Of a DNA stretch of 64,000 bases, positions 9,396 through 27,000 are shown piece by piece. The stretch's first letter is position 1. The number at the start of each line of letters is the position of its first letter. Source of the DNA: a virus (lineage: Duplodnaviria; Caudoviricetes). The notes under the pieces are model-generated. The model worked only from the letters and a program-made list of their open reading frames with translations, searched no databases and was not told the DNA's origin. The stretch lies in IMG/VR virus record IMGVR_UViG_3300026158_000083, positions 1 through 64,000 of that record; one strand, 5' to 3'. The translations under genes and the position numbers were made by a program.

Positions 9396-9400
9396 ATGCT

Positions 9401-9431
9401 AAAGGGGACGGCTGCAAGGTCGCCCCCTTTT
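9401..9431 (+). terminator. Intrinsic terminator after the capsid gene
   Basis: GGGG-A-CGGC / GTCG-C-CCCC stem followed by TTTT. Confidence 0.7.
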
Positions 9432-9434
9432 ACT

Positions 9435-9524
9435 ATGAAAAACAATAAATCAAATGTAATTTCAACAGCGCTGTACATTATAGCGTGGTTGTTAGTGGTG
9501 ATTTTGTTATTTAGCGATCACTAG
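9435..9524 (+). CDS. 29-aa single-transmembrane peptide
   Basis: MKNNKSNVISTALYIIAWLLVVILLFSDH; no clear RBS. Confidence 0.35.
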   Translation: MKNNKSNVISTALYIIAWLLVVILLFSDH

Positions 9525-9564
9525 CGCAGTGCTGTATAATGCGCATGAACTTGGAAGTATAAAC

Positions 9565-9993
9565 ATGCGAATTACGCTAGGAAGACCACTACCAAATGGC
9601 GTTGGCCGTGTTTCACAGTGGTTCGATGAGCATCCAGAATGGTATAAGCGCTTTGGCTTATACGCTCACAATGGTCTGGATTACTCAGCGCCACTCGGCA
9701 CGCCGGTCATCGCCGCGCACATCGGGGTCGTGCAAACTGGCAGCGATCCAAGCGGCTACGGCAACTACGTCAAGGTGATCGGTGCGCGCATGACAACGCT
9801 CTACGCACACCTGTCGCAAGTCACGGTGACGACGGGCCAGCGGGTACAGGCGGGCGAGCAGCTCGGGCTGGTGGGCAGTACGGGCAACTCGACGGGGCCG
9901 CATTTGCACTTCGGGCTGCGGATCGCGGGCGTGCGCAATCAGGCGTATGGCAACTGGCTCGATCCGATGTTAGGACGCATAAACGAGGAGTAA
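9565..9993 (+). CDS. M23 family metallopeptidase (endolysin-like or virion-associated)
   Basis: HxxxD (HNGLD), YAHL and GNSTGPHLHF motifs. Confidence 0.9.
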   Translation: MRITLGRPLPNGVGRVSQWFDEHPEWYKRFGLYAHNGLDYSAPLGTPVIAAHIGVVQTGSDPSGYGNYVKVIGARMTTLYAHLSQVTVTTGQRVQAGEQLGLVGSTGNSTGPHLHFGLRIAGVRNQAYGNWLDPMLGRINEE

Positions 9994-9996
9994 CAC

Positions 9997-10320
9997 ATGG
10001 CACTTACACCAGAACAACAGAACATTGTCGCAGAGTACACCCGGCAGCAGCGGGCCACCGTGGGCGAGTTCGCACGGCTGCTCAACCACATGGCCGCGCT
10101 CGATGCGATGTACGACGGGCAGGTGACGGCAGCCTGGGCTTCGCTGGCAGTGGGCGACGTGATAGCGGACGGTTCGGGCCTCGCGGGTGTGTCCTCGCTG
10201 ACGAAAGCCGAGATTGCGTCGATTGCGACGGCGATGCAAGCGATCCTGACGACCTACAATGGCGAGGCGCTGCGGCAACTCTACGTGCGCATGGCAGGCA
10301 TTTCCAACACAGTGGGCTGA
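9997..10320 (+). CDS. Hypothetical protein, probably structural
   Basis: GAGGAG RBS; tightly coupled to the beta-helix gene. Confidence 0.65.
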   Translation: MALTPEQQNIVAEYTRQQRATVGEFARLLNHMAALDAMYDGQVTAAWASLAVGDVIADGSGLAGVSSLTKAEIASIATAMQAILTTYNGEALRQLYVRMAGISNTVG

Positions 10321-10323
10321 TAA

Positions 10324-11463
10324 ATGGCAATCACTCACAATTACGTGGACTATGGCGCTGGCAACGACACCACGGGGGACGGCACAGTTGGCACACCGTG
10401 GAAGACGCTGCAAAAAGCGTTTGACACGCTGACGCGCAACACCACCGACGGCAACCAGGTCAACCTGAAGGCTGGCACGGCGCACGTCAACGCGGCTGCG
10501 CTTGATCTGACGACGTTAATCGCAGGCGGAGCATTGTCTGGCGTCGCGCCGCTTATCATTCGCGGCTACACCTCGGCGGCTAACGATGGCGGCATCGGGG
10601 AGATTGACTGTGGCGGGGCGACGATGTTCGCGGCAACGACGTATGACTATATCATAATGGCTGACCTGGAAATACATACGTTTGGCGACAATAATGGCCT
10701 GGTGCTGGATCAATATGCCACCCTGTACCATTGCGAAATACACAAAGGGGTAAGTTCGCCATCTGGTAAATCTCTCGTCACGTTGGGTCTGTACTCTAAG
10801 GCATTGGCGTGTTATTTACACGACATTGGCGCGGCGGCTTCCAGGGGCTTGCGATTAAATAATAACGGGCTGGTTATGTCCTGCTACGTGGACATGGGGG
10901 CTGATTCTACGTCATACGGCATTGATTTATTTGGCACTTTTAGTTACGCAATTGGCAATGTCGTAAAGTGCAGCAATGTCAATCAGTACGCGCTGTTTTT
11001 GTCCGCCGCTGACACGGCAATCGGGAATATTGCGTATAGCTCCACGAGCAGCACGAAGTACGGCATCTTTTTAGACAGTGCTACCTCGCTTTGGAGCGTT
11101 GCATTGAATAATATCGTCGTCGGATGGAGCGGTGCAGGTGGCAGCAGTATAAAGTTTTCGGGTGATGCTCAACTGGTCGGGCACAACGCCTTCTACAACA
11201 ACACGGCAAACTATACCGTTGTCGGTCAAACCTTCATCGACCTGACCGCTAACGACGTGGCGCTCGCGGCTGACCCGTTCACGGATGCGGCCAACGGCGA
11301 CTTCTCGCTGACCGCGGCGGCCAAGACGGCGCTCGCGGCGAAGGGCTTTCCGCTGGCATACCTCGGCGCGCACGCGAACACGGTGCCGAATCTCAACATC
11401 GGGCCGATCCAGTTGGCGGCAGGTCGGCCTGCGTTCGGGGATCGCTCAGGGGGTAAGTTCTGA
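10324..11463 (+). CDS. Right-handed beta-helix (pectate-lyase-like) protein, possible head spike
   Basis: YVD-GND-GDGT-PWKT start motif, Asn-ladder repeats (IGNVV, IGNIA, LNNIV, GHNAFYNN), DPFTDAANGDFSL end motif. Confidence 0.7.
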   Translation: MAITHNYVDYGAGNDTTGDGTVGTPWKTLQKAFDTLTRNTTDGNQVNLKAGTAHVNAAALDLTTLIAGGALSGVAPLIIRGYTSAANDGGIGEIDCGGATMFAATTYDYIIMADLEIHTFGDNNGLVLDQYATLYHCEIHKGVSSPSGKSLVTLGLYSKALACYLHDIGAAASRGLRLNNNGLVMSCYVDMGADSTSYGIDLFGTFSYAIGNVVKCSNVNQYALFLSAADTAIGNIAYSSTSSTKYGIFLDSATSLWSVALNNIVVGWSGAGGSSIKFSGDAQLVGHNAFYNNTANYTVVGQTFIDLTANDVALAADPFTDAANGDFSLTAAAKTALAAKGFPLAYLGAHANTVPNLNIGPIQLAAGRPAFGDRSGGKF

Positions 11464-13253
11464 TGCAAGTTGCAAACGGTTCGACAGACGTAAGCACTTA
11501 CTTTGTCCTGCGCGACTCCACGACGCACGCGCCTAAAACGGACGTGACCGTAACCGACATCGACCTGTATTACGTCGAACAGGGCGCGGCGATCTCGGCA
11601 AAAGCCGACGCCACTGCGCTGGCTGCGGCTGACTCGGCACATGGCGACAATCAGGCGTTTCATGTCGGGCAAGGCTTGTACCGCATTGATTGGCCCGATA
11701 ACTGCTTCAATGGCGGTGTAGGTAAGCTATGCGAGTTGATCGTCGTGTGTACTGGCGTTGATACCACGTTCCTCGAAGTCGAATTGACAGGTGTTGCACA
11801 GACCGGCGACAGCTATGCCATCGTCAACCATGCCGACTACGGCAACGCCAAGCTGGTGCGCTCAACCACTCCGGCGAACACTTTGACCGTAGATGCCTCG
11901 CACCAGGCGCTGGCACTGACGAACGCCGTCACGAACGATGCGATCACGGCGGCGGCGATTGCGAACGGCGCGATTGATGCGGCGACGTTTGCGGCAGGCG
12001 CGATTGATGCGGCGGCGATTGCAGACAACGCGATTGACAACGGCGCATTGGCCGCGGATGCGATCAGCGCGGCGAAGATCGCGGCTGACGTGACGACCGA
12101 ACTGCAAGCGGGTCTTGCGACGGCAACCGCGGCCTTGATCCTGGCTACGCCTGCTAACAAGTTGGTTACAGATGCGAGTGGCTACGTCAAGGTTTCGGGC
12201 GTCAAGAATACATTAGACTCCCTGAATGACATTGCTGCTGGCGAAGCCATGACGCTGACTGCCGCCTACGACGCAGCTAAGACCGCCGCGACACAGACCA
12301 GCGTAAACGCGATTGATGATTACGTAGATGCCGAGGTTGCGGCAATCAAGACAGTCACAGACAAGCTGGATACGGCACTGGAATTGGATGGCGCAGTATA
12401 TCGTTACACTACAAATGCACTGGAACAAGCGCCAACTGGTGGTTCTGCGCCTTCAGTTGATGATATTGCAACCAGACTGCTTGTTACACCTGCTAATAAG
12501 CTTGCCACCGATGCTACTGGCAATGTCAGTCTTACGTCTGCCTATGATGCAGCTAAGACCGCAGCCACGCAAACAAGCGTCAACGATTTGCCGACTAACA
12601 GCGAACTGGCAACGGCGCTGGCCGGGGCCGATGATGCTGTGCTAGCTGCCATCACTGGTCTGAACGACTTTGATCCGGCGGCAGACGTGGTTGCACACGT
12701 CACGCTCGTTGACACGACGACGACGAACACGGACATGATCGCGGCTGCGCCAAGTGCGACGGACATCAAGACCGCATTGGAAGCCGATGGATCGAAGCTA
12801 GATCACCTGTGGGAGATGACAGAGGACGATGGAGGGGTGCGGAGGTTGACGGCTAACGCGCTTGAAGAAGGATCATCTGGTACTGGTTTGGACGCTGCTG
12901 GTGTTAGAACGGCAATTGGGCTTGCTACGGCAAATCTCGATACGCAGCTTGCCAATATACCGGCAGATGTTGATACAGAGCTTTCTGCAACACACGGTGC
13001 TGGTGCGTGGGGCGCAAGTATGGGCGCTAGTTCAGTTACGTATACTGTAACCGTAGACGGATTGCCAAAGGACGGCGTGTATTGTAGAATGACTAGCGAT
13101 GCAGATGGTCTTGTCAATATAGATGCCGGATACAGCAATGCATTGGGTCAGGTGACATTCTATCATGACGTACCTAGCGGTACTACGGTATATATTTGGC
13201 GACAACTGGCAGGTATTAGCTTCACGAACCCGGATACTGAGGTGATTCCGTGA
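11463..13253 (+). CDS. Ala/Thr/Asp-rich repetitive fibre-like structural protein
   Basis: Tandem AIDAAAIA-type repeats; duplicated TPANKLxTDA and AYDAAKTAATQTSVN blocks. Confidence 0.65.
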   Translation: MQVANGSTDVSTYFVLRDSTTHAPKTDVTVTDIDLYYVEQGAAISAKADATALAAADSAHGDNQAFHVGQGLYRIDWPDNCFNGGVGKLCELIVVCTGVDTTFLEVELTGVAQTGDSYAIVNHADYGNAKLVRSTTPANTLTVDASHQALALTNAVTNDAITAAAIANGAIDAATFAAGAIDAAAIADNAIDNGALAADAISAAKIAADVTTELQAGLATATAALILATPANKLVTDASGYVKVSGVKNTLDSLNDIAAGEAMTLTAAYDAAKTAATQTSVNAIDDYVDAEVAAIKTVTDKLDTALELDGAVYRYTTNALEQAPTGGSAPSVDDIATRLLVTPANKLATDATGNVSLTSAYDAAKTAATQTSVNDLPTNSELATALAGADDAVLAAITGLNDFDPAADVVAHVTLVDTTTTNTDMIAAAPSATDIKTALEADGSKLDHLWEMTEDDGGVRRLTANALEEGSSGTGLDAAGVRTAIGLATANLDTQLANIPADVDTELSATHGAGAWGASMGASSVTYTVTVDGLPKDGVYCRMTSDADGLVNIDAGYSNALGQVTFYHDVPSGTTVYIWRQLAGISFTNPDTEVIP

Positions 13254-14137
13254 GCGATTGGGTCGGCAGCGGTTCAGTAATTTCAACGCCTGAATCAAGA
13301 TCATGTCTTGAATACCTAACCGTTGCCGACGTACGCGCTGAGTTTGGTGACGAAGTAGCCGAAGATACCGATATCAGCATTCAGCGCCGCATCGATCAAA
13401 TGTCTGCGTTTCTGGAAGATCAGATCGGGCACACTTTTGGACGAGCCATGATTGCGCGCTCTAGCGACGCCGATACTGTGTTGGTTACAGCTACTGAATT
13501 AGAGATCGGCGGTGCGCACTATACATTCGCCGATTATCCGACTCTGTCAGAACTGGCTTCTGCCGTAAACGCTACTACGGGCAATTACAGCGTAGAACTG
13601 TTGCCGCGCGTTCGGCCAGACACACCATCTACGCTACTCGCGCTGCATAGCGTTTCGGCCTGCGGACCGGATTACGATGATCGTACGGTTTTGTGTACGT
13701 CGTCAATGTACACGCGACTTACCGGACAGTACCAGTCACACATATTCTTGCCACTGGCGCTAAATTCAGTTTCTGCCGTCGTCGAAGATTTGGTCGCGCT
13801 GGCAACAACCGACTATTGGGCTATTCCTGGTGATGCGTGGCTGATTCGCAAGGCTTGCGGTTGTAATACGACTTGCGTGCACGCGCGCGGTCGTTGGTCA
13901 GCCGCTTATCCTGGCAATATCGCAGTTAGTTTTGTACCGTCATTTTGGGGTCGTGTGCCGGGTTCATTAAGTGGACTATTGCTAGAAGCTTTTAGCGCAC
14001 GAACAGGTCTGGCACCATTCAACTCTGAAACGTTCGGTGACTACAGTTACAAGCGGCCAGCGGCACCCGTAGCTGGCTGGAACGACATTTTGGGCAGTGG
14101 CGCATTGCGACAATACGCAACGCGTTTTCAACCGTAG
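13250..14137 (+). CDS. Head-tail adaptor/connector-like protein
   Basis: YLTVADVRA start and SETFGDYSYK end motifs typical of gp6-like adaptors. Confidence 0.7.
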   Translation: MSDWVGSGSVISTPESRSCLEYLTVADVRAEFGDEVAEDTDISIQRRIDQMSAFLEDQIGHTFGRAMIARSSDADTVLVTATELEIGGAHYTFADYPTLSELASAVNATTGNYSVELLPRVRPDTPSTLLALHSVSACGPDYDDRTVLCTSSMYTRLTGQYQSHIFLPLALNSVSAVVEDLVALATTDYWAIPGDAWLIRKACGCNTTCVHARGRWSAAYPGNIAVSFVPSFWGRVPGSLSGLLLEAFSARTGLAPFNSETFGDYSYKRPAAPVAGWNDILGSGALRQYATRFQP

Positions 14138-14153
14138 GTTAGTTTGAGGTGCT

Positions 14154-16829
14154 ATGACTGCTAAAGACGGCACGCCGCAAGCGGTGTGCTTCTATCCTCG
14201 CTTTGCTTCGCACGAATTAGGTGGCGTAGCTGTACATATCCGCTATCTGGCGCGCCATCTACAAAAACTTGGTTTTACAATTGTTGATACACCAGACGAA
14301 AACACGCTTATTCACGCGCACGCACAAGCGCGACCTGAAAACATAACGGTTTACTCAAATCATGGGATTTACCCGATAAAAGACAAAATGCCAGCGTGGC
14401 AGATTGGCACCAATGCCGCGATCTTCGACAATCTAAAACTAGCTACTGAAATTATTGCTGTCAGTAACTGGACGGCTAATCAATGGCAGCATTTGGTCGG
14501 ACGTCAACCGCATATCATTCACAATTCAATTGACATGGATGAGTGGCATAGTGCGCCTGCCGGTCAGTGGCGCGCACGACTAAAAGTGCCGAACAAAACG
14601 CCGCTAATTTTGTGGGGTAAGACTTCGCTTAGCGATGTGCTTGATCCAACACCGCTTATTGAATTGGCGCTTCATCATCCTAATATGCGCTTTGTCGCGC
14701 CATTGACGCCGCGCATGTTAACGACAAGTCTAAAAAACCTTTCACTAATTGGTCAACAGCCGTTTGAAGATATGCGCGCCTTGCTACAAGATTGCGATGT
14801 CTACTTGGCTACTGTGCAGGAAAATCATAGTATTCAAGTTCTGGAAGCTATGGCGCTGAAAAAGCCAATTTTAGGTTATAATTGGGGCGGTACTGGTGAA
14901 ACGTTAAATATTTCAGGCCAAACGCGCGGTGGCATTTTGACAGAGCCGCGCGATCTTATCAAATTGATCGCGTTATTGCCTGAAGTTTACGAACAGCGCG
15001 TCAAACTCGGTCAAGACGGTCACGAACTTGTTGCTGAATATTTTTCAGCAGCCAAGCAGATGCCTAAACTAGTAGAGGTGTACAAGATGGCGCTAGAAAA
15101 GAAACCAAGACAGTCTCGCGCATCACCTATAGTGCGTTGTTCAATCGTTATTCCGGTTTATAATAAGGGTCCCTACATTGGCGAAACGGTCAACAGCGCA
15201 TTGCGTCAGATCAACGCGCCCAAGCACGAAGTCATTGTCGTCGATGACGGTTCCACGGATGATTCGCTACTAAATGCAAGACGTGCGGCTGAAGGTCGCA
15301 CCAATATTCGCTTTTACTCACTGCCTAATGGCGGTGTTTCAGCGGCGCGCAATTTCGGCATAAGTCACGCGAAGGGCGAATATATTTGCTGTCTTGACGC
15401 CGATGACTTGATCGATCCTAATTTTCTAAGTCGTCTTTCAGCAGCACTGGATGCCGATCCTGGTCTTGGTATCGCCTATAGCGATTTTGTAGCTTTTGGC
15501 ACAAATCAAAGAGGCATGCCATTTGAAGCGCCAATAACCTGTGAAGAATACGATTTTGAAAAACTCAAGCGCGGCAATCTCATGCCGTGCTGTAATCTGT
15601 TTAGGCGCACGGCTTGGGAACGCGCAGGCGGCTATAAGCCAATCAATCCGTCGTGGGAAGATTACGAACTCTGGCTGAACATGGGCAAGCTTGGCTGGTA
15701 TGGCCGACGTGTGCCGGGTCATTTGTTCAAGTATCGCAAAGTGCCGAAGACTGGACGCGATTATCAGTCGCAGGGGCTGGAATGGAAACTGCGCGCGACG
15801 GTCAATAGCTATCATCGCGATCTTTATCCGCCGCTAGTAAGCATTATCATACCATGCTACAAACACAGTCATTTTTTGCGCACCGCCATTGATAGCGTTC
15901 TGGCGCAGACTTTCAACGATTACGAAGTGCTGGTTGTAGATGACGGTAATGATGCTGATGAGCTAAACTCAATTCGCGAAATTGTTGAAAGTTACGCCAA
16001 TCCAAACGTACGCGTGGTGCGTCACACACAGAATATGGGTCTTGCCGCCGCGCGTAACACTGGCGTAGAGATGGCGCGCGGTCAGTGGATCGTACCGCTA
16101 GATGCTGACGACAAGCTTGCGCATGAGTTTCTGGAAGAAGTGTTGCGCGCATCTGAGCAGTTGAATCCCAATCGCTTTGTCTATGCAGACACCTATTTGT
16201 GGTGGCCGGATGCCGATCCGGAAACTAAGCTGTTAGCCGCCAACGATTACAATTTTGACGAAAGTCTTAGCAAGATAACGTGGTCATGCACGATTTTGTT
16301 TCATCGTGATGCATGGCAACGCGTTGGTGGCTACAAACCGCAGATGTCGGAACTTGGCGGTTGGGAAGATTGGGAATTCGCGATTTCGTTGGGCGAAAAC
16401 GGTATTTGCGGCGTGCATGTTGCTAAGCCGTTATTCTATTATCGCCAACATTCTAATACGCAGATGCGCATGCAGGCCGAAAGCAATAAGCCAGTCTTGC
16501 AAGAGGCGATTCGTCGCTTGCATAGCGAAGTTTATCGCGGGGAGAGAACTCAAATGTGTTGTGGAGCAGGTAAACGCACGCGTCCTGTAGCGACCGTAGA
16601 TCAGACCGTACCCGTTGCGCGTACTATGCCGCAAATCGCAGCCGCAACTTCAAACACGAATGATCGTGTTTTGATTCGCTATGTCGGCACGCATCTAGGT
16701 TCGCAGACCTGGGTCGCGCCAAGCGGCGAACGCTATCGTTTCGGCTTGAATGATCCGCTGCAAAGGGTGCGCTATGAAGATGTTGACTTCTTTATCAGCC
16801 GCGGGCCATTTAGACAGGTAACAGCATGA
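14154..16829 (+). CDS. Tri-domain glycosyltransferase (GT4 + GT2 + GT2) with a small C-terminal domain
   Basis: GT-B: ENHSIQVLEAMA. GT-A 1: SIVIPVYN-VVDDGSTD-LDADD. GT-A 2: SIIIPCY-VVDDG-LDADD-WEDWE. Confidence 0.9.
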   Translation: MTAKDGTPQAVCFYPRFASHELGGVAVHIRYLARHLQKLGFTIVDTPDENTLIHAHAQARPENITVYSNHGIYPIKDKMPAWQIGTNAAIFDNLKLATEIIAVSNWTANQWQHLVGRQPHIIHNSIDMDEWHSAPAGQWRARLKVPNKTPLILWGKTSLSDVLDPTPLIELALHHPNMRFVAPLTPRMLTTSLKNLSLIGQQPFEDMRALLQDCDVYLATVQENHSIQVLEAMALKKPILGYNWGGTGETLNISGQTRGGILTEPRDLIKLIALLPEVYEQRVKLGQDGHELVAEYFSAAKQMPKLVEVYKMALEKKPRQSRASPIVRCSIVIPVYNKGPYIGETVNSALRQINAPKHEVIVVDDGSTDDSLLNARRAAEGRTNIRFYSLPNGGVSAARNFGISHAKGEYICCLDADDLIDPNFLSRLSAALDADPGLGIAYSDFVAFGTNQRGMPFEAPITCEEYDFEKLKRGNLMPCCNLFRRTAWERAGGYKPINPSWEDYELWLNMGKLGWYGRRVPGHLFKYRKVPKTGRDYQSQGLEWKLRATVNSYHRDLYPPLVSIIIPCYKHSHFLRTAIDSVLAQTFNDYEVLVVDDGNDADELNSIREIVESYANPNVRVVRHTQNMGLAAARNTGVEMARGQWIVPLDADDKLAHEFLEEVLRASEQLNPNRFVYADTYLWWPDADPETKLLAANDYNFDESLSKITWSCTILFHRDAWQRVGGYKPQMSELGGWEDWEFAISLGENGICGVHVAKPLFYYRQHSNTQMRMQAESNKPVLQEAIRRLHSEVYRGERTQMCCGAGKRTRPVATVDQTVPVARTMPQIAAATSNTNDRVLIRYVGTHLGSQTWVAPSGERYRFGLNDPLQRVRYEDVDFFISRGPFRQVTA

Positions 16830-17503
16830 AGACGTGGTTTATACCAACTGTCATGGTGCGCAATGAAGAACATCATATTGCGCAAGTGTTGCGACCGCTT
16901 GTTGCAGTTTGTGGTCACGTCATGCTCGGCGATACAGGTTCGACTGACAATACCGTAGCGATTGCCAAGCAAATCGACGGCGTAGAAATTATCGAATACG
17001 GCCAGCAATCGCAAATCGGTCTTACTGAAACGCGGCATAATTTGGGTCTACGCGTCAAAGAAAAAGGCTGCAAATGGCAGTTGCTGTGCGATGGCGATGA
17101 ACTGTACAATGTAACTACGTTGCAACACATCGCGAATGAAGGTATGCCGAATGACAAGTTGACCGGCTTCACGAAAATGAAGTCCATCGATGCCGATACA
17201 GATGGCTCGCTTTGGGAAATGAACGACAAGTTTTCGCGTGCCGCGCTTCTGCCAGCCGATACAACCTGGCATGGCATCTATCCATTCGATGTACCGGACT
17301 GTTATCGTTACGATGCTAAATACTATTATTTTTCACTAGCGCAGGGCTATGAATATCACGCCGTGCATTTGCATCGCTTGACACGCAGCCCGCAGGACGC
17401 CGATGTAGTTTTGCGCATGACAAAACAAAAGCAGTTTGCCATGCGCGACGTAATTGTGCCGCGCACGATTATCTTCGATCTGGATTGGTGGTGCCGACAA
17501 TGA
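16826..17503 (+). CDS. GT2-like glycosyltransferase
   Basis: VRNEE-GDTGSTDNT-CDGDE (DxD) motifs. Confidence 0.85.
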   Translation: MKTWFIPTVMVRNEEHHIAQVLRPLVAVCGHVMLGDTGSTDNTVAIAKQIDGVEIIEYGQQSQIGLTETRHNLGLRVKEKGCKWQLLCDGDELYNVTTLQHIANEGMPNDKLTGFTKMKSIDADTDGSLWEMNDKFSRAALLPADTTWHGIYPFDVPDCYRYDAKYYYFSLAQGYEYHAVHLHRLTRSPQDADVVLRMTKQKQFAMRDVIVPRTIIFDLDWWCRQ

Positions 17504-18171
17504 GTTTGCCGAAAATCAGCGTCATCATTCCATCGCGTGATCGACCGCAGGGTTTACTGGCCGCAATTGAGTCAATTCGCGCCACGCAGGGCGCTTACGA
17601 CGTTGAAATTATTGCGGTGTTAGATGAGCCTGACGAGCTTAGCCAAAAGACTTTGCTGGACGAACATTCTGACGTGAAGATCGTCATTGGTGGTCCAGGC
17701 GATTATTATCTTGGCAAACCACAGGACAAATACAATCTCGGCTACGCAGCTTCGACTGGCGAATGGATTGTTACCGGATCAGACGATATCACGTTTGAGT
17801 CGCAAGATTGGATCGGTGAGTGTCTGCGCTGCAATCGCGGCGGCTTCGTCGGCATCAGCGATGGCGGTCAAGATGTAAACTGGTGCTGTGTTATCCATAT
17901 GGCGTCGCGCGCGTATATTGACACAGTGATGCGCGGCTATCTCGGTCTGCCCTGGTATCATGTCTGGTGGGCCGACGTTGAGTGGACACAGCGTGCTAAA
18001 ATGTGCGGCTTGCACGCCGCGTGCACGACGATCAAGTTGACGCACCATCACTGGCTGCGCGGTAATGCGACTAAAGATACAATCGCGGAACTGGTACAAC
18101 AATTAGCGCCGGAAGATCAGAAGACCTATACCAGGCGTGTCGCGCGGCGCTTTGCAGATGATTTGCCATGA
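17500..18171 (+). CDS. GT2-like glycosyltransferase
   Basis: ISVIIPSRDR-GEWIVTGSDD-WWADVE motifs. Confidence 0.85.
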   Translation: MSLPKISVIIPSRDRPQGLLAAIESIRATQGAYDVEIIAVLDEPDELSQKTLLDEHSDVKIVIGGPGDYYLGKPQDKYNLGYAASTGEWIVTGSDDITFESQDWIGECLRCNRGGFVGISDGGQDVNWCCVIHMASRAYIDTVMRGYLGLPWYHVWWADVEWTQRAKMCGLHAACTTIKLTHHHWLRGNATKDTIAELVQQLAPEDQKTYTRRVARRFADDLP

Positions 18172-19178
18172 GGTGTGTAATGGAAAATACTTTTGATCGG
18201 CTAGAACGCGTTGAAAATCTACTGCGCGCTATGCTAGGTCGTTCTTCGCAGCGGCTCAGCGTCTTGATTACAGGCGGCACTGGTACGTTAGGGATCGCTC
18301 TAACCGAAGCGTTTATTAATAGAGGTTATACCGTAACTGTTGTTAGTCGCAATCCGCATCGTCAGAGTCAGTTCAAACAAAAATATCCTAACGTCGAGCT
18401 ATATTTGGCCGATATTTGCGATTACGAAACCATGCTGCGCGCGTGTACCGGCAAGGATATTGTTATTCACGCGGCGGCTCTGAAGCGTGTTGATATTGGC
18501 GAAAGCGAGATTGCTGAATTCGCGCGTGTCAACATCGACGGCACTAAGACTGTAGCAGATGCCTGTCGTGCCGCAGGTGTTGAACGCGCGTTGTTCATAT
18601 CTTCGGACAAGGCCGTCAGCGCGCTGAACTTTTACGGTGTCACCAAGGCCGCTGGCGAACGTATCTGGCTAGACCATCATGAAGGCAACAGCAATCTTGG
18701 TGTGCGCTTCAGCGCAGTGCGTTACGGCAACGTAATGGGTTCCAACGGCAGTGTGCTGCAAATTTGGCGCGAACGTTTGGCTAAGCAGTTGCCCATTGTC
18801 GTGCGTTCACCAAGCACAACGCGTTTCTTTATGCGCGTTGAAGACGCCGTGCAAATGATTTTTGACGCGCTGCTCTACATGCAGGGTAACGAGATTTTCG
18901 TGCCGCTAACTACACCAGCCTTCGCATTGCATGATGTAGCTTTGTGCGTTGCACCGCGCAGCGAGTGGTGCATAGAACCGCTAGGCCCGCGCGAGAAGCA
19001 GCACGAACTGCTTGTCGCACCCGGCGAATATTATGAGACTGTCAGCGACAGGCTGTGTAAGATCATTCCAGATGTACCTGGTGACTTTACGCTACCTGAT
19101 TGGGCTTGTTCAAGGACGACGCGTCAGCTTGACGGTAAGACGGTGATTGAGATGCTGGAGAAAAGCGATCATGCTTGA
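18168..19178 (+). CDS. NDP-sugar 4,6-dehydratase, PseB/FlaA1/CapD-like extended SDR
   Basis: TGGTGTLG, HAAALK, S-SDK, YGVTK and RYGNVMGSNGSV motifs. Confidence 0.9.
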   Translation: MRCVMENTFDRLERVENLLRAMLGRSSQRLSVLITGGTGTLGIALTEAFINRGYTVTVVSRNPHRQSQFKQKYPNVELYLADICDYETMLRACTGKDIVIHAAALKRVDIGESEIAEFARVNIDGTKTVADACRAAGVERALFISSDKAVSALNFYGVTKAAGERIWLDHHEGNSNLGVRFSAVRYGNVMGSNGSVLQIWRERLAKQLPIVVRSPSTTRFFMRVEDAVQMIFDALLYMQGNEIFVPLTTPAFALHDVALCVAPRSEWCIEPLGPREKQHELLVAPGEYYETVSDRLCKIIPDVPGDFTLPDWACSRTTRQLDGKTVIEMLEKSDHA

Positions 19179-19521
19179 TATTTTGCTTATCGGTTTAGCG
19201 GCATGGCGTTTGGCGCATATGCTGGTCAAAGAGGATGGCCCGTTTGAAATGTTCAGCAAGCTGCGTAAGTTAGTTGGTATCGAGCAGATTGTTGTGCGAG
19301 ACGGCGATAAAGTTGACGTTGCGCTAACAGCCAAAAACACGCTGGCGGAAGGTTTGCTGTGCGTGTGGTGCGTATCAGTGTGGACGGCTACGCTGTTGTA
19401 TGTCGGTACGCTGATCCCGCCTTTGCACGCGCCGTTTATATGGTTTAGTAGCATTTTGGCGATTAGCGCGCTAGCTATCGTCGTGCAGGAGTTTGTTACA
19501 GCTTTGCGGGGAGAAGAATAA
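19171..19521 (+). CDS. DUF1360-like membrane protein
   Basis: AAWRLAHML-DGPF-LR and LLCVWCVSVW (CxxC) in hydrophobic helices. Confidence 0.7.
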   Translation: MLDILLIGLAAWRLAHMLVKEDGPFEMFSKLRKLVGIEQIVVRDGDKVDVALTAKNTLAEGLLCVWCVSVWTATLLYVGTLIPPLHAPFIWFSSILAISALAIVVQEFVTALRGEE

Positions 19522-20093
19522 TGATCGATTCGCCGTGGGATAGACCGAATGTAGCCAATGAAATCGATGCGTATTGGGCCTGTCAGGATGAAACTGCCGC
19601 GCGCAAAGTTGTCGTGGCAGATTTGAAGCCGCATTTGCATGATGGCGATATTATGGATATCGGTTGTGGTAGCGGGCGCATTTATGAGACGTTGCGCGAC
19701 TTTGACATCATCAAAGAGCATCGCTATCGTGGTTATGATAGTTCACGCGAGATGATTGCCATTGCTAAAGGTCGCTACAAGCGCGTCAAGTTTGAATATG
19801 CTGATCTTATGGATATCGATCAACCAGCAGCCAACGTAATTTGTATCAATGTTTTGCAGCATATCGATGATTGGCAGACGACTACCAGCAAGATGTTGGG
19901 ACTAGCCGAAAAGATGCTCTATGTCGTCGCGTGGTTTGGCAGCACGGCTAGTCGCAAATACGATAGCGGTACGGGTTTCTGGAATAACTGGCTGGATCAT
20001 CAGAAATTCGTAGATTTTTGTCAGCCACACGGTATAGTTATCAGCCGTATGAATCTATGGGGTACGGTGGGTTCTGTAACAGTCTACAAGTGA
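19521..20093 (+). CDS. Class I SAM-dependent methyltransferase
   Basis: IMDIGCGSG motif I, GYDSSREMI, VLQH. Confidence 0.9.
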   Translation: MIDSPWDRPNVANEIDAYWACQDETAARKVVVADLKPHLHDGDIMDIGCGSGRIYETLRDFDIIKEHRYRGYDSSREMIAIAKGRYKRVKFEYADLMDIDQPAANVICINVLQHIDDWQTTTSKMLGLAEKMLYVVAWFGSTASRKYDSGTGFWNNWLDHQKFVDFCQPHGIVISRMNLWGTVGSVTVYK

Positions 20094-20099
20094 GTTGCA

Positions 20100-20681
20100 A
20101 TGGATAAACCAGCATTTGTATATTCAATTCAACCGAATCCAGATTACGGTTACATCGTAGATGGCGAACACATTTTTTTGCGACCTATGCAGCCTAATCT
20201 ACGAGATGGTTATTACGTGACGCGCTGGCGCAATCACGATAGCGCGCGTGTGGCGTTTTGGAACACACAGATTGTCACGCCGGAAAGTCATATCAACTGG
20301 TTGAATAAAAAATCACCTTATGATATGGTGTGGATGGGTTGTAAGCACGGCACGTCTAAACCGATTGGTATGGTTGGCCTAATAATTGATCCGGCAACGC
20401 ATAGCGGAGAAGCTGGCCGTTACTTTGTCGATCAAGATGAGCGCGGTAACGGTTTTGGCGTCGATCTTGATAAGCTGGTTATCGCGACGGCATTTCAGTT
20501 GTTCAACCTAAACGCGATTTGGCTGGACGCTTGGGCGGCTAACGAAACCGCCATGAACATGCACATCAAGAACGGTTGGCGTGTAGCCGGTTACGATATT
20601 GCCGGTCACACACGCGTCGATGGTAGCGTAGTACACATGATAATCACTGCTAACGACTGGCATGTATTGCATGCGCCGTGA
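20100..20681 (+). CDS. GNAT N-acetyltransferase (PseH-like)
   Basis: WRN-HINW N-terminus as in PseH; ERGNGFG acetyl-CoA motif; NETAMNMHIKNGW. Confidence 0.8.
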   Translation: MDKPAFVYSIQPNPDYGYIVDGEHIFLRPMQPNLRDGYYVTRWRNHDSARVAFWNTQIVTPESHINWLNKKSPYDMVWMGCKHGTSKPIGMVGLIIDPATHSGEAGRYFVDQDERGNGFGVDLDKLVIATAFQLFNLNAIWLDAWAANETAMNMHIKNGWRVAGYDIAGHTRVDGSVVHMIITANDWHVLHAP

Positions 20682-20694
20682 ATAGTGGTATGAT
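20667..20694 (+). promoter_or_regulatory. Internal extended -10 promoter before the aminotransferase
   Basis: TTGCAT, 16 bp, TGnTATGAT. Confidence 0.45.
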
Positions 20695-20722
20695 ACTGTC
20701 ATTCTAGCGAAAGGCTGGTTTC

Positions 20723-21790
20723 ATGATTCAGGTTCTGCAACCGGCATATACCGAATCTGACATTGCCGCAGTTAGCGAAGCCATGCGCAGTTGCTGGTGG
20801 GGTTTGGGTCCGCGCTGCGTTGAGCTTGAAAAACAGTTGACCGAACGCAGCGGTTATAAGTACGCCGTAACTGTTAATTCGGCAACATCTGCGCTACATC
20901 TGGCCTTGCTGGCTAACAATGTTGGACCCGGCGATGAAGTAATCGTTCCAGCTCTGACATTCATTTCAACAGCGCTTGCAGTTACGTACACCGGCGCGAC
21001 GCCTGTATTTGCAGATATCGATCCAACAACGCTGACGCTGGATTGGCGCGATGTGCGTTCAAAAATTACTTGGCGCACAAAAGCGGTCATTCCGGTAGAC
21101 TATGCCGGACAGCCTGCGTGGCCGAGCGCGCTGCCTGCTAACATCACAATTGTTGAAGATGCGGCGCACAATGTGCTTGGTTCGCATTATGGCGATGCCG
21201 TTTGCTATTCATTCCATCCAGTCAAGCAACTGGCTACGGCTGATGGCGGCGCGATTCTTACCAACAATGCGCAACAGGCCGCTAGACTGCAAGCGCTGCG
21301 TTGGTGTGGTATAGATCGTTCAACGTGGCAGCGCAGCGGTAAACGCTATTCGTGGGATTATGATATTGCTGAAGTTGGTTATAAATACCAATTCAATGAT
21401 ATACAAGCTGCATTAGCGCTTTCGCAGCTAACACGTTGGGATGAGATTGTTGCTAGACGCCGCGCGATGGTAGATTACTATTTCAAAGAATTGCGCGGCA
21501 TCGATGGTTTAGAATTACCAGCAGATAGTGCCGGCCATACCTGGCATCTGTTTGTCGTGCGCGTCGCGTCAGAAAAGCGCGACGACTTACTGGACTATCT
21601 GGCCGCAAAAGGCATTGGCGCAGGCGTGCATTACAAACCATTGACGCACTATAAACCTTATCTGCAAGAGACGCCGCCGTTGACCGAAAAGGTTTGGCGC
21701 AGATTGGTTACGTTGCCGCTACATCTCAATCTTAGTGTCGAAGATCAGGCGCAGGTATGCACGGCTATCAAGGAATATTTGGCTAAGTGA
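20723..21790 (+). CDS. DegT/DnrJ/EryC1/StrS PLP-dependent sugar aminotransferase (PseC/VioA-like)
   Basis: NSATSALHLAL, EDAAH, YSFHPVK (PLP lysine), GYKYQFNDIQAAL. Confidence 0.92.
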   Translation: MIQVLQPAYTESDIAAVSEAMRSCWWGLGPRCVELEKQLTERSGYKYAVTVNSATSALHLALLANNVGPGDEVIVPALTFISTALAVTYTGATPVFADIDPTTLTLDWRDVRSKITWRTKAVIPVDYAGQPAWPSALPANITIVEDAAHNVLGSHYGDAVCYSFHPVKQLATADGGAILTNNAQQAARLQALRWCGIDRSTWQRSGKRYSWDYDIAEVGYKYQFNDIQAALALSQLTRWDEIVARRRAMVDYYFKELRGIDGLELPADSAGHTWHLFVVRVASEKRDDLLDYLAAKGIGAGVHYKPLTHYKPYLQETPPLTEKVWRRLVTLPLHLNLSVEDQAQVCTAIKEYLAK

Positions 21791-21791
21791 T

Positions 21792-22247
21792 ATGGCAACA
21801 CTAGCACAACTAGCACCACGCATTTTTCGTTTAGCTAATCGTCGTTACGGTAAGCCGTATATGACAGTAGTTAGACCAGTCGATGATTGGAATCTGCCGA
21901 ACGACTTTGCTTATGATCCAGACGTAGATGCGGTGCGCAATTCTAACGGTACAGTGTTGCCTAATCCCGAAGATTATTGGACATCTGATGTTGTCTATAT
22001 TGTGCCAACTAAAGCTGACTGGCGCGATGATGTAGCAGAACTCTTTAAGGTTGTCGCCGGTGGCATGCTAAACGAAGGTACATTGGAATTGTGGATTGCT
22101 CAGGGCGATATCAGTAAAGTAAGAGCCGCACATTCAGTTTTGCTGGATCGTCGATGGTATAATGTCGAAAATCAACAGGAAGCGCCATCAGGTTATCCTG
22201 GTACAGACGGCTTGTGGAGCCGGGTTAGATTGCGGGGTAGGTCATGA
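21792..22247 (+). CDS. Head-closure (stopper)-like protein
   Basis: Position before the tail terminator; beta-rich, about 150 aa. Confidence 0.55.
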   Translation: MATLAQLAPRIFRLANRRYGKPYMTVVRPVDDWNLPNDFAYDPDVDAVRNSNGTVLPNPEDYWTSDVVYIVPTKADWRDDVAELFKVVAGGMLNEGTLELWIAQGDISKVRAAHSVLLDRRWYNVENQQEAPSGYPGTDGLWSRVRLRGRS

Positions 22248-22639
22248 TACTGGAAGTTTTTGAAAGTATACTCGCGGCCTACAAGACTGAATTATCTGTT
22301 ACGACTAGCAAGGGCTATCCTAACTGGGCGCGGCCAGATTTGGTAACACCTTGCGCGGCGCTAGAGTTCGCCGGATTTCAGCCGTATAAAGATCGTATCG
22401 GCCAAACGCTCAGTACATCTAGCATTACATTTAGGGGCTGGCTTTTCGCGCGGGATGAGCCACAACTATGCGCAATGGTAGATGCATTGATCGAATGGCA
22501 CAGAACTGACGGCAGCGCGTTTGAAGCGGCAGCGCGACGCGTAGCCTGTATGCTGCAAGCTTTGGAACGCCATGATCCGTTGACTAGCAATATCAACGAG
22601 ACGCATGCCGTAACTTTCTTACTACAAGTAGTCTACTGA
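22244..22639 (+). CDS. Tail terminator/completion protein
   Basis: 131 aa directly upstream of the major tail gene. Confidence 0.6.
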   Translation: MILEVFESILAAYKTELSVTTSKGYPNWARPDLVTPCAALEFAGFQPYKDRIGQTLSTSSITFRGWLFARDEPQLCAMVDALIEWHRTDGSAFEAAARRVACMLQALERHDPLTSNINETHAVTFLLQVVY

Positions 22640-22654
22640 GACTAAGAGGTAAAA

Positions 22655-23164
22655 ATGGCTCGTATCGCATTTAATGCCGATTTGGACCTGCGACAGCAAT
22701 ATCTGTCCATGCTTTATCATAAGATTCCTGGCGAAGCAGCTTGGACGCTTATCGATCAGGGCAAGGTCAGCACGCCGTCGTCTAAGGCTGACGAAAAAAC
22801 CTACAACCGCATCGGCGATGAAAATCAGGTCAAGGTCGCTGGTCAGATTACCACTGACGTGACGCTGCAAGTCTATGTCGATGATAATCTTGACGAAGTA
22901 GCCCGCATGCTTGGTTTCGTTCGTCCTGGTAGCGGTTGGTCGGGCAGTGAGGTTATCAAGCTCGATCCGACTAAGGTAAGCGATCTCAAGCTTGAGAGCT
23001 ATAACGGTGTTACGGCGGGCAGCACGCTGCTGTACACCGAATACATCAATCAGTTCCGCCCGATGAACTTCTCGGTGCCTGAGGACGCTGATGGCGACGT
23101 GCGTATCGCTGAACTTAGTGGTTCGTGCGCCAGCTACTACATCGTACCTGAGTCCGGAACGTAA
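22655..23164 (+). CDS. Major tail tube protein
   Basis: GAGG RBS; precedes the frameshifting chaperone and the tape measure; followed by a stable hairpin. Confidence 0.75.
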   Translation: MARIAFNADLDLRQQYLSMLYHKIPGEAAWTLIDQGKVSTPSSKADEKTYNRIGDENQVKVAGQITTDVTLQVYVDDNLDEVARMLGFVRPGSGWSGSEVIKLDPTKVSDLKLESYNGVTAGSTLLYTEYINQFRPMNFSVPEDADGDVRIAELSGSCASYYIVPESGT

Positions 23165-23185
23165 GTTTGGCTGGTAAAAGCGGCA

Positions 23186-23207
23186 GGGGCGTTCGCAAGA
23201 ACGCCCC
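23186..23207 (+). other. GC-rich hairpin with GCAA tetraloop (possible mRNA stability element)
   Basis: GGGGCGTTC-GCAA-GAACGCCCC, no T-tract. Confidence 0.6.
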
Positions 23208-23226
23208 GGTGTCTGATAGGGGGAGT

Positions 23227-23778
23227 ATGGACAATAAAGTCACGCTGACCGATGCGGTCGGCAACGAAATGCTGTCGTTTGAGGTGGACGGCAAGCAATT
23301 CTATGTGCGCCAGCCGACGCCGGAAGAATATGACGACGCGATGGCGCTGCAATCCTTGGTGTATCGCAAGACGCTGGCCGCACCGCACATCAAAGACGTT
23401 GCTGATGTGCCGTGTTCTGATGGCGAACGCGCCATATTTCAGGCTATGATTGATGACGCACAGCGCAGGTTCGATGAATCTGAGGATGAGGTCGCAAAGC
23501 AGAGTCTGGCACAGGAGCTGGCTCGTCTGCAAACCGAACTTGAAGGACGCACGCTGGCGGAGGAAACGGCTTCCGATACCGCAGCGCTAAAACGCGACCG
23601 TTGGCTATGTGCGCGCTTGCTGTGCGACGCTAACGGTAAATCGTTGTTCGACACTGCCAGCAAAGACTTTGAAAAACGTTGGAACAAATTGCCGGTACGC
23701 ATCAAGAATGAGGTGCGACCGCTTATCTGGCGCGCATTGGCATTGGTGCGTGAAGCCCCTTTCTCGTTGGACCTCTAA
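23227..23778 (+). CDS. Tail assembly chaperone (gpG-like)
   Basis: GGGGAG RBS; ends just after an in-frame slippery heptamer. Confidence 0.8.
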   Translation: MDNKVTLTDAVGNEMLSFEVDGKQFYVRQPTPEEYDDAMALQSLVYRKTLAAPHIKDVADVPCSDGERAIFQAMIDDAQRRFDESEDEVAKQSLAQELARLQTELEGRTLAEETASDTAALKRDRWLCARLLCDANGKSLFDTASKDFEKRWNKLPVRIKNEVRPLIWRALALVREAPFSLDL

Positions 23779-24017: not shown

Positions 24018-27000
24018 ATGGCAGTAGATCAATTACGCTTCGATATCATTATCGGGTCTAAAGACTTCGATACCACCAATGCGAAGGTCGCTAAAAGCAT
24101 CACATTGATGGATGATCTTGGCAATGCTACGCAGTACGCCGTCAACAAGATGGCTGAGCTAGCGGCCAGGGATATCAAAGTCGATGTTACGGGCAATGTT
24201 ACACAAGCCTCATATAAGAAGCAGGTCGGCGATCAAGAACTAGCCGCCGCGCGTCTGCGTCAGCAAATTGAAAACGCAATTTTAGACCGTAAAGAGGTTG
24301 ATCGCGCGGCAGCCGCAAAACAACAAGCTGCAAGTGACGTTAGCGGAAACAAATTTGCGGTTGAAACGGAGCGTAAGCAAGCCAGAGATTTGCGCAAAGA
24401 AGCCGCAGATTTGCGCGACCTGGCAAAAGTAGTTGCTGCCGAAAACGCCACTGAAAAAGATGCCGCTAAGCAAAAAATGGTTGATGGCGCTCTGCTATTA
24501 GCCAAGCAAAAAGAATCAGCGGCTATTCGATTAGAAACCTCAGCGAAAGAAAAAGCAGATAATCAAGCTTACCTCAACTCGCGTTCCGCTGCATTGCGCG
24601 ACGAACTTAGACTCAAACAGTCGGCTCAGCAGAGGTCCACAGAACAGGTGGCCGCTGCGCAAAGGGAACTTGCGCAGAATATAGCTATAACTTCAGAGGT
24701 AAAGCGACAGTTAGACCTAAAGCGACAATCATCCGGGCCAGATACTCTTATTAAAGATACAAAAAGAGGTGGTCTGTCGCCAGAGCTAACGAACACGCAG
24801 GCTCTAAATGCCGAGTTGTCTGATACAGCGCGTATCAACGCCATCGTAGAACAAGCCGAAGCTAAACGCGCGGCCTGGGCAAACAAGATCACTACTGAGT
24901 ATCGCGGCACTAATGCCGAAGCGCAAAAATTAGCTGATATCAGCGCCAGTCAAGGTGCTTCAGGTACAATCGACGTACCGGAAGGTCTTACTGGCGGCAC
25001 ATATCAATCTGACTTGGCTAATTTCACGCGCGAATATGAGAAGACGGCTGGCAAGGCTGGTAATACTACTAAAAAGCTTGGCCGAGAAGTTAACGTGGCC
25101 GACGCAGAAATGCGCGACTTTTCCATTGGCCTGCGTTCTGCCGTCTCTATGCTTGGTCATCCATCACTAGAAGGTTCGCTGTATTTCTTCTCACAAATTG
25201 GTCGTAACCTAAAGGGTTGGCCGCTTGTATTGGGTCTCACTGGTTTTGCGCTTGGTGGTATCATTGCCGGTTTGACCAGTCTTATTGACGAAGGCGCTAA
25301 AATCGATGCTGTCAGTACGGCATTTGAAAATCTATCAAAGAATATCGGCACAGTTGGCACGGAACTTGCTAAACAGGTAAAGGGCGCGGCGGGCGATGCA
25401 ATAACGCTTGGCGAAAGCATGACGCAGCTGAATCGTGCCTATATGGCCGGTGGTGCAAGCTTTGCCAATGAATTGCCACGTCTGATGGAGATTGCGCGCA
25501 GCAGCGCGTTGGCTACCGGCAAAGATATCAACTACGTTTTCAACTCGCTAGTTACTGGTATTGCCCGCGGTTCGCCACGTCTCATTGATAATGCCGACAT
25601 CTATCTAAAACTTGGTGATGCAGCCGGTGAATATGCCAAACAAACTGGCAAAGCCATCACGCAGCTAACTGCTGAAGATAAAATTATGGCTACCTTGCTG
25701 GCTGTTTTGAAGCAGGGCGAAAAGTCCATACGCGATATTGGCCTAAGCGGAAAGACATCGGCTGAAGACCTACAAAGCTTTTCGTCCGCCCTTAAAGACC
25801 TAAAGGCCGGTGCTGGAAAAATTCTTATTGAGATAGGAATTACGAAAGCGGTAGGCGAAACTGGCGATGTGCTAAGTCAAGCCGCGGATCGTTTGGCTCT
25901 TATTTCGCAATTCAAAAAAGACCTTGAAATGATTAAGTTGTTCGGTGAAGGCATGCAAGCCACCGAACTTTCTGGACGAGCAGCAGCAGCCGAATTAAAC
26001 GCACTAAAGGCTTATCTGCTAGATGATGTTGAAGGCAGTCAGGAACTATATCAAATAGTTCTTGAAATTATGGCTGCCGCTGCTAAATTTAGATCAGAGC
26101 TAGAGGGTCAAGAACAAACCGACGTTGGTTGGGCAGAGCAAAGGACTAAAGATACTAAAGCGCTTGCTGCGTCTACCGATGAAGCCGCAAAGCGCATGGA
26201 AGAATTCAATACAGCCTTCAACGATGCCGCCGAAATGGATACGCCATTCAAGGAGATGGCTAAGGGTCTTGGTGATCTTGTCAAAAATATGACCGCCGCA
26301 CTTTCGGGACTGAGAATACCTGAAATGAAGGGCGGCATAATGGAGATCGATACTGGCAGTTTAGAAAGCTGGCTACTATACACGCGCGACATCATCGGCG
26401 TTGAATCTGACGCCTATATCGCCATAGCCAATCTAACCAATCAGATTCGCGAACAGCAAAAGGCCATTATTGCCAATGCATCTGCGTATGGCACCAATGA
26501 AGGTAAGATGCTGTCTTTCGCCCAAGCCGCTTTTGGTGTCGATGCAACTGCCAAGACCATCATTGAAAACTTCGACAGTCTAACGGTTGAGGCTAAACGT
26601 TTCGTAACTGAAATCGGTACACTGAGCTTTGCGCTAGATGAATTTTACGCGGCACGGCGCGAACCCATTAGTATCAAGGTCGTTTACGATGAAGTTACTA
26701 AAGCACAGGACGCGCTAGATGATCTGGCGACCCAGATTTCACTTGCTGGTGGCAAATCAGATGCTGAGGCTTTTCGCGCGCGCGGCGTGGCCGTTATCAC
26801 GGCCTTTGAACAAGGCTTGCGTGAACTTGGCGAAATCGATCCGATAACATTCCAGATACTGCTTGGCAACGCTTTGGCCGGTATTACTGCTGAGGGCGAA
26901 CAGCTGCGCGAGCGCTATGAGGGTATCAAGGAAATCGGTGATCAGATCAATAATCTGATTCGCGATTCTAAATTGCCGAAACTGCCAGACATCGGTGAAC

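Follow-up and report, generated by a model that had tools for sequence, protein, structure and literature searches.

The DNA analysed here (the window) is the first 64 kb (64,000 nucleotides) of a 73,690 bp linear phage record from IMG/VR, IMGVR_UViG_3300026158_000083, estimated by CheckV to be 88% complete. Positions 14154-21790 hold a cassette of eight + strand open reading frames (ORFs), all co-directional, which probably encodes a virion glycosylation system of the phage's own, expressed with its late structural genes. The cassette opens with a large enzyme carrying three glycosyltransferase domains. Comparison with related phages indicates that this triple transferase and a small DUF1360 membrane protein are the conserved core of the lineage, and that the genes for sugar synthesis are a variable add-on, a division missed by the first-pass annotation of the window.

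The cassette is part of the late structural operon

Domain calls on the cassette ORFs were made with Pfam; the flanking genes were also analysed with PHROGs, language-model features (Atlas) and a PDB profile search. The cassette and the structural genes around it are listed below.

7992-9395, + strand: major capsid protein, HK97 fold (467 aa; AlphaFold2 (AF2) model and Foldseek), candidate acceptor
13250-14137, + strand: probable head-completion or head-tail adaptor protein (295 aa), encoded just before the cassette
14154-16829, + strand: triple glycosyltransferase GT4-GT2-GT2 (891 aa; Pfam), with a C-terminal beta domain of ~65 aa
16629-16826, + strand: the beta domain of the triple transferase (residues ~826-891; AF2 pLDDT 83)
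16826-17503, + strand: small GT2_4-like glycosyltransferase (225 aa; PF13704 Glyco_tranf_2_4 at 26.2 bits, cut-off 27.5)
17500-18171, + strand: small GT2 glycosyltransferase (223 aa from ATG, 228 aa originally; PF00535 Glycos_transf_2)
18168-19178, + strand: UDP-HexNAc 4,6-dehydratase of the PseB/FnlA/CapE branch (336 aa; Polysacc_synt_2 1.7e-57)
19171-19521, + strand: DUF1360 membrane protein (116 aa, 124 aa with the original start; Pfam PF07098 3.7e-10)
19521-20093, + strand: S-adenosylmethionine (SAM)-dependent methyltransferase (190 aa; Pfam Methyltransf_25/12/31/11; DIGCGSG motif)
20100-20681, + strand: GNAT N-acyltransferase, PseH-like (193 aa; Pfam Acetyltransf_1/3; RGNGFG CoA motif)
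20723-21790, + strand: DegT-family nucleotide-sugar 4-aminotransferase (355 aa; Pfam DegT 4.2e-91, 306 bits)
21792-23164, + strand: three small genes (151, 131 and 169 aa), putative neck or tail-tube genes by position, kept after the cassette in close relatives
23167-23778: weak tail-chaperone match
24018-29249: 1743-aa ORF, presumed tape measure from its size and place in the operon

Better start positions were found for three of the genes (17500, 19171 and 21792). The junctions within the cassette consisted of 4-nt ATGA overlaps, one 8-nt overlap, one 1-nt overlap, or gaps of 1-41 nt. Terminator-like sites occurred no more often than in shuffled sequence, and the intergenic gaps of the cassette contained none; the GC content of the cassette (0.48-0.51) was inside the range of the window. 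Translational coupling ties the cassette into the late structural operon, where it is positioned between the head genes and the tail genes. The first-pass annotation had described eight translationally coupled genes over the same interval, in agreement with the ORF list and the junction analysis; its total of five glycosyltransferase domains (one GT4, four GT2-like) was returned by Pfam, and its SDR dehydratase, DegT aminotransferase, GNAT, SAM methyltransferase and DUF1360 protein were all found by Pfam HMM search. It had also set the cluster between an adaptor and a stopper gene. The position between head and tail genes held; for the adaptor, language-model features were the sole support, the 295-aa protein matching HCP / Phage_connect_1 (gp6-like connector) clusters by Atlas features (0.96) and nothing in Pfam, PHROGs or the PDB profile search. 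Close relatives keep its gene (49-62% identity) in front of that of the triple transferase. No nucleotide (megablast) or capsid-protein (tblastn) match of the record was obtained among 50,697 phage records.

The triple transferase tracks the capsid gene

Pfam placed the GT4 domain of the triple transferase at residues 13-287 and the two GT2 domains at residues 330-488 and 559-760. Across 40 homologs, the GT4 residues E223/E231 and the DxD-type motifs of the two GT2 domains, D415xD417D418 and D650xD652D653, were invariant, and a transmembrane (TM) scan found no TM segment in the cassette transferases. Full-length relatives were present on at least 259 IMG/VR contigs (27-56% identity), and about 60 full-length homologs at 50-66% identity lay on metagenome contigs of 60-107 kb, some labelled as Anaerolineae metagenome-assembled genomes. 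Scans of IMG/VR with a single transferase or capsid protein sequence gave nothing and alignment-based queries were required; the 54-sequence capsid alignment was too diverse to serve as one. When 185,579 species genomes were searched, the best 80 of 504 matches to the triple transferase were partial, generic GT2 matches with one full-length exception, and by this measure the three-domain fusion appears to be essentially absent from cellular genomes. The exception, L086 (contig CALKWP010000011.1), was binned as Methanomassiliicoccales and showed phage synteny; the contig is phage DNA placed in the wrong bin or else belongs to an archaeal virus from the same lineage. Its gene order was triple transferase, DUF1360, then genes of 349, 147, 118, 485, 188 and 724 aa. 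Many distant homologs (L031, L042, L046, L062, L068 and others) carried extensions beyond the beta domain, made up of a Pro-rich linker and then either a helix-hairpin-helix-like motif or a tail rich in Lys and Arg, an architecture that suggests nucleic-acid or surface binding.

In every locus carrying both genes, the triple transferase lay downstream of the capsid gene. Close relatives kept the order capsid gene, adaptor (after intervening genes), triple transferase, variable genes, DUF1360, three small genes, chaperone and tape measure, while in about 50 distant relatives the order was capsid gene, variable genes, triple transferase, DUF1360, further structural genes and tape measure. Pairwise distances of capsid and transferase were correlated across 57 phages (r = 0.87, Mantel p = 0.001; 0.84 within the distant group). 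This correlation marks the triple transferase as a core gene of the head module, passed down vertically. When the search started from the capsid protein, seven loci were long enough to assess, and in five of them the transferase lay downstream. Co-occurrence of the cluster with head genes in related contigs had been put forward as a check on the first-pass annotation, and it was borne out by the position of the transferase behind the capsid gene and by the correlated distances; the nearest homologs, rather than forming a host capsule or O-antigen locus, occupied the same place in related phages. One IMG/VR record, 3300031566_000001 (143 kb; L011 and L015), contained two diverged blocks, each running from a portal-like gene (g534 homolog) to the capsid gene and transferase, about 75 kb apart, and may represent two related phages joined in assembly.

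A variable set of tailoring genes accompanies the core

The variable part of the related cassettes amounted to 0-12 extra genes. A Pfam census of 150 such genes returned DegT (14), GT2 (13), epimerase/dehydratase (9), Methyltransf_24 (7), sulfotransferase (4 + 2), and GNAT, hexapeptide acyltransferase, phosphodiesterase and GT10 families (2 each). Two loci had expanded sets, with one GT1, one GT2, one GNAT, two methyltransferases and one DegT in L175, and one GT1, two GT2, two GNATs, three methyltransferases and one DegT in L176. The latter locus also carried an Acb5-family gene (13748-13972), a gene for a 268-aa protein with an ADP-ribosyl-exotoxin-type domain, PF03496 (20701-21507), and a tyrosine integrase gene directly after the capsid gene. 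As the tailoring genes vary between relatives, the eight-gene set would be one version of a diversifying cassette on a fixed core. The literature searched on DUF1360, phage capsid glycosylation, Chloroflexota phages and phage-encoded Pse-type sugars yielded no description of this lineage.

Among the genes added to the core in this phage are two small transferases. The 225-aa protein fell short of the PF13704 cut-off; its homolog in L002 cleared it at 27.9 bits, and homologs were present in L002, L003, L005 and L010. The GT2 enzyme encoded at 17500-18171 scored 26.2 bits against a Pfam cut-off of 23.3 and matched PHROG 14945, a glycosyltransferase family, at 2e-11.

The dehydratase scored 192.8 bits against the PseB model TIGR03589, under its cut-off of 407.75, and this was still the top NCBIfam model (FnlA, 135 bits). 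Its closest solved relative was H. pylori FlaA1/PseB (PDB 2gn4, 7e-42), with which the extended-SDR motifs TGGTGTLG (the Gly-rich NAD(P) site), SSDKA and YGVTK aligned, and the TM scan found no N-terminal membrane domain, in keeping with a soluble enzyme. The aminotransferase scored 277.8 bits against the PseC model TIGR03588 (cut-off 423.5) and 272.8 bits against the ArnB model, also below cut-off; its closest solved relative was ArnB (2e-64; PseC, 3e-33), and the lysine motif SFHPVK was kept. Aminotransferase homologs of 50-60% identity shared contigs with homologs of the triple transferase. For the GNAT protein the best NCBIfam model was PseH (TIGR03585), at 56.4 bits against a cut-off of 93.1. 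In the dehydratase, aminotransferase, GNAT and methyltransferase alike the active-site motifs are preserved, and the methyltransferase probably acts on a sugar or the glycan.

Neither a NeuB/PseI-type gene (PF03102) nor a PseF-type CMP-transferase gene (PF02348) was detected in the 73.7-kb, 88%-complete record, with positive controls, and no PseG-like gene was seen in the cassette. The cassette lies outside the Pse pathway in the strict sense. We infer that the enzymes make a donor of the UDP-4-acylamino-4,6-dideoxy-HexNAc type, used directly by a transferase. The claim of the first-pass annotation that the phage makes an amino-deoxy sugar of its own and encodes several transferases agreed with the enzyme families and motifs. 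The pathway stops short of a nonulosonic acid, NeuB/PseI-type and CMP-transferase genes being absent from the record. A reading of the enzymes as PseB, PseC and PseH stood in part: each was the best NCBIfam model of its enzyme, but all three scores were under the equivalog cut-offs and the aminotransferase was nearest to ArnB.

DUF1360 and the C-terminal beta domain

The DUF1360 protein had three TM-like segments in the TM scan, with a Glu and a CxxC motif invariant in a 36-sequence alignment, and BLAST located its gene behind the transferase gene at 35 of 56 distinct loci. Pfam assigned this small membrane protein to DUF1360 and not to GtrA, PF04138 itself not having been searched. A predicted complex of transferase residues 10-891 with DUF1360 scored 0.00, a result that counts neither for nor against binding.

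In the beta domain a Tyr and an Asp were invariant in 38 sequences. Fold searches gave nothing significant (Foldseek against the PDB, best E 0.05; VIA wide, best Z 4.8; BFVD, best 1.5e-3, to uncharacterised proteins), and a PDB sequence-profile search with the domain gave no match. Weak, sub-significant fold resemblance was seen to the YqbF N-domain (Z 4.7) and the lambda gpFI C-domain (Z 4.1). The beta-domain profile matched 1048 cluster representatives, in which the domain occurred on triple transferases, on single GT2 enzymes, or as stand-alone proteins of 65-200 aa; seven of the eight mid-size matches scanned also matched GT2 families, some of them perhaps being fragments. Stand-alone copies directly after a transferase were found at six distinct loci (seven loci, two of them identical), and one stand-alone copy was coupled to a DUF1360 gene; none was present in this window. 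The beta domain may be a docking or carrier module, and DUF1360 and the beta domain are conserved accessories, perhaps with a docking, carrier or localisation role. In L178, a 1930-aa protein (8001-17518) had 14 partial matches to the beta-domain profile, and its gene adjoined that of a 1057-aa PMT_2/GT87 GT-C glycosyltransferase. The 109-kb contig carrying both looks cellular, and this repeat protein may hint at a beta-domain repeat acting as a glycosylation acceptor.

A model for glycosylation of the virion

The AF2 model of the capsid protein, built from 54 sequences, had a pLDDT of 81. In a Foldseek search of the PDB its top 30 and more matches were all phage capsid proteins, led by Sf14 (9c2d, E 3e-11, probability 1.00) and followed by SU10 and HK97, and its Atlas features matched SU10_MCP. 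The C-terminal tail of the protein was conserved, flexible and of low confidence in the model, and Ser and Thr made up 19% of its last 30 residues against 13% overall (across homologs). This tail is a candidate acceptor only, as far as composition and model go.

Based on enzyme families and motifs, we propose that the soluble PseB-like dehydratase would convert a UDP-HexNAc, most likely UDP-GlcNAc, into a 4-keto-6-deoxy sugar, to which the DegT aminotransferase would add a 4-amino group. Acylation by the GNAT would then give a donor of the UDP-2,4-diacetamido-2,4,6-trideoxyhexose type, not taken on to a nonulosonic acid, and the methyltransferase would place a methyl group on the sugar or on the finished glycan. 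The cytoplasmic GT4-GT2-GT2 enzyme and the two small GT2 enzymes would assemble a short glycan straight onto a virion protein with no lipid carrier involved, and the first candidate for the acceptor is the capsid protein. With the transferase and DUF1360 core inherited vertically alongside the capsid gene and the tailoring genes swapped between relatives, the surface glycan of the particle would be diversified.

The comparison set for this model consisted of 49 records, this one and 48 related phage records, 18 of them at least 90% complete. Bac_transf (PF02397), WecA-type (PF00953) and Wzy/ligase (PF04932) genes were found in none of the 49, flippase families not being among those searched, and PMT_2 (GT-C) genes were likewise found in none; in the positive controls these families were recovered in 9-12 of 14 reference genomes. 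A tyrosine integrase was present in only 4 of the 49 records, and no integrase of either type was found in this 73.7-kb record, on which grounds lysogenic conversion was set aside. Direct cytoplasmic glycosylation of a virion protein is favoured because lipid-carrier and GT-C genes are lacking, integrases are few, there is no hydroxymethylase, the transferases have no TM segments and the cassette is coupled within the late operon.

Several points weigh against this model. The capsid protein and the putative tube proteins have no obvious C-terminal Thr/Ser tag. The conserved DUF1360 partner sits in the membrane and is not obviously needed for cytoplasmic capsid glycosylation, and a membrane-linked process is therefore also conceivable. 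The phage could borrow lipid-carrier enzymes from its host, so that their absence from phage genomes is weak evidence. The PseB, PseC and PseH assignments all lie below curated equivalog cut-offs, which makes the identity of the sugar uncertain. Lastly, locus L169 has a 439-aa non-homologous gene directly after the adaptor, where the transferase would be expected; this is a possible natural replacement or loss. L169 is IMG/VR 3300022556_000188, and its capsid and adaptor proteins are 63% and 57% identical to those of this phage.

Alternative explanations

Modification of the host envelope during infection has to be weighed first. Here the glycan would be built on a lipid carrier or envelope polymer with the help of priming and export enzymes of the host, DUF1360 would serve as a small membrane partner or a flippase-like protein, GtrA-like in size, and the effect would be receptor masking, a block to superinfection, or keeping progeny off debris. 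The conservation of the 3-TM DUF1360 protein beside the transferase speaks for such a role, as does the matching of the GT2 domains to PHROG families named 'GtrB-like O-antigen conversion'. GT2 and GT4 enzymes acting on undecaprenyl-linked acceptors are also soluble or peripheral, so solubility fits this explanation as well. Prophage genes altering capsule sugars are known too, as described in passages of PMC12053666. However, GT-C (PMT_2), Wzy/ligase and priming transferase genes occurred in none of the 49 records, most records had no integrase, and the triple fusion appears essentially absent from the species genomes searched. In addition, the transferase behaves as a vertically inherited, capsid-tied core gene coupled within the late structural operon, whereas conversion genes are usually stand-alone morons. 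We thus regard host-envelope modification as unlikely.

A more improbable explanation is that the beta domain is itself the acceptor or carrier, glycosylated at the C-terminus of the enzyme or on stand-alone copies, where it would serve as a decoration or a primer, possibly with DUF1360 at the membrane. The invariant Tyr and Asp, the occurrence of the domain on triple transferases, on single GT2 enzymes and alone, the stand-alone copies directly behind transferases at six distinct loci (with the one coupled to DUF1360), and the weak resemblance to the phage head-module proteins YqbF and gpFI are what one would look for in that case; but every fold match was below significance and this window has no stand-alone copy. 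Far less probable again is hypermodification of DNA, in which the transferases would glycosylate modified bases in the phage DNA, as in T-even and other phages. The helix-hairpin-helix-like or Lys-rich C-terminal tails of some distant homologs could bind nucleic acid, and there is precedent for glycan assembly on DNA by viral transferases (Pyle et al. 2024, cited in a passage of PMC12619734). The transferase of this phage has no such tail, however, and its gene belongs to the head module and not to a nucleotide-metabolism module. DNA glycosylation was set aside on the further ground that the record holds no homolog of a thymidylate-synthase-like hydroxymethylase.

Beyond virion glycosylation in this one phage, a broader and more tentative suggestion may be made, which we would not rate as probable. 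The GT4-GT2-GT2 enzyme, the beta domain and DUF1360 might together constitute an undescribed, capsid-gene-linked glycosylation machine of hundreds of uncultivated phage lineages, including the one on the Methanomassiliicoccales-binned contig. Exchangeable tailoring genes would then give each phage a particle 'serotype', as O-antigen loci do for bacteria, and the beta domain would be a glycan carrier or a capsid docking module.

Other genes flanking the cassette

Most of the flanking genes gave nothing useful in Pfam or PHROGs, even at E <= 1. The three small genes downstream of the cassette had no family match in either database; the position of the first (21792-22247), ahead of the weak tail-chaperone match and the presumed tape measure, fits a neck or tail role. 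The homolog of the 1743-aa ORF in L063 matched PHROG tape-measure families. Upstream, a 569-aa gene (6255-7964, + strand), whose single family match was PHROG 19463 (function unknown), stands before the capsid gene at most of the related loci and may be the equivalent of a scaffold or protease gene. A gene for a 154-aa M23-type metallopeptidase (9529-9993, + strand) lies between the capsid gene and the fibre-like genes, and its best PHROG matches were peptidase domains of tape-measure proteins and endolysins. Two further genes between capsid and adaptor (10324-13253, + strand) encode proteins of 379 aa, with a weak pectate-lyase-like DUF5123 match, and of 596 aa, with a weak tail-fibre match. 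These two proteins may be head fibres or depolymerase-like appendages; relatives carry other genes at this position, for example one with a Pel9A-like beta-helix in L004.

Significance and comparison with known systems

To our knowledge, phage-encoded virion glycosylation has so far been shown only for a few actinobacteriophages. If the proposal made here is right, glycan-coated particles would be a fixed trait of a large uncultivated phage lineage that is widespread in the environment, in which a conserved enzyme core is combined with a fast-changing sugar toolkit. This would bear on how such particles avoid non-host surfaces, evade recognition by hosts or grazers and remain stable, and it would provide a compact soluble enzyme set for rare amino sugars and lipid-free protein glycosylation. 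DUF1360 and the transferase-linked beta domain also gain a concrete, testable context.

The first three enzyme families of the Pse pathway of Helicobacter and Campylobacter (PseB, PseC and PseH) are also found here. In contrast to that pathway, PseI- and PseF-type genes are missing and the UDP-sugar is presumably the direct donor. In serine-rich repeat adhesins, a GT4 enzyme (GtfA/GtfB) initiates and GT2-type enzymes elongate an O-linked glycan in the cytoplasm without a lipid carrier. The cassette shares with that system soluble GT4 and GT2 families and, as proposed, stepwise glycosylation of a protein; it differs in having no sequence relation beyond the glycosyltransferase families, no serine-rich repeat acceptor, and a phage context. 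GtrABC serotype-conversion modules likewise set a GT2 domain beside a small multi-TM protein of about 120 aa, but here there is no GtrC or other GT-C enzyme, DUF1360 is not of the GtrA family, the GT2 enzymes have no C-terminal TM anchor, and the genes belong to the late structural operon of phages that mostly have no integrase. Giant viruses such as chloroviruses and Mimivirus encode nucleotide-sugar synthesis together with transferases for the glycosylation of their own capsids or fibres; they have eukaryotic hosts and double-jelly-roll capsids, and their enzymes are unrelated to those of this 74-kb tailed phage.

The mycobacteriophages provide the closest parallel. Che8, Corndog and Myrna carry virion glycosylation cassettes, and in mycobacteriophages the proteins modified by the transferases are capsid and tail-tube subunits (Freeman et al. 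2023, Cell Host Microbe 31:1216, summarised in passages of PMC11600133 and PMC12619734). According to those passages, the cassettes consist of phage-encoded glycosyltransferases with a neighbouring methyltransferase, as here, the transferases standing in tandem downstream of an O-methyltransferase gene. As with the mycobacteriophage genes, the transferase genes of the present cassette are phage-encoded, lie within the structural operon and are kept in related phages. When the transferase was compared with phage records by tblastn, generic GT2 matches at 22-33% identity were obtained, none covering 80% of the query, and there was no Mycobacterium phage among the 25 records or among the most frequent organism names listed. 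The present cassette belongs to an unrelated phage lineage, with no nucleotide or capsid-protein match among the 50,697 phage records. It is further set apart by the fusion of three domains in one conserved enzyme of about 890 aa with a novel C-terminal domain, by a conserved DUF1360 membrane partner, and by a nucleotide-sugar dehydratase, an aminotransferase and an acetyltransferase of its own.

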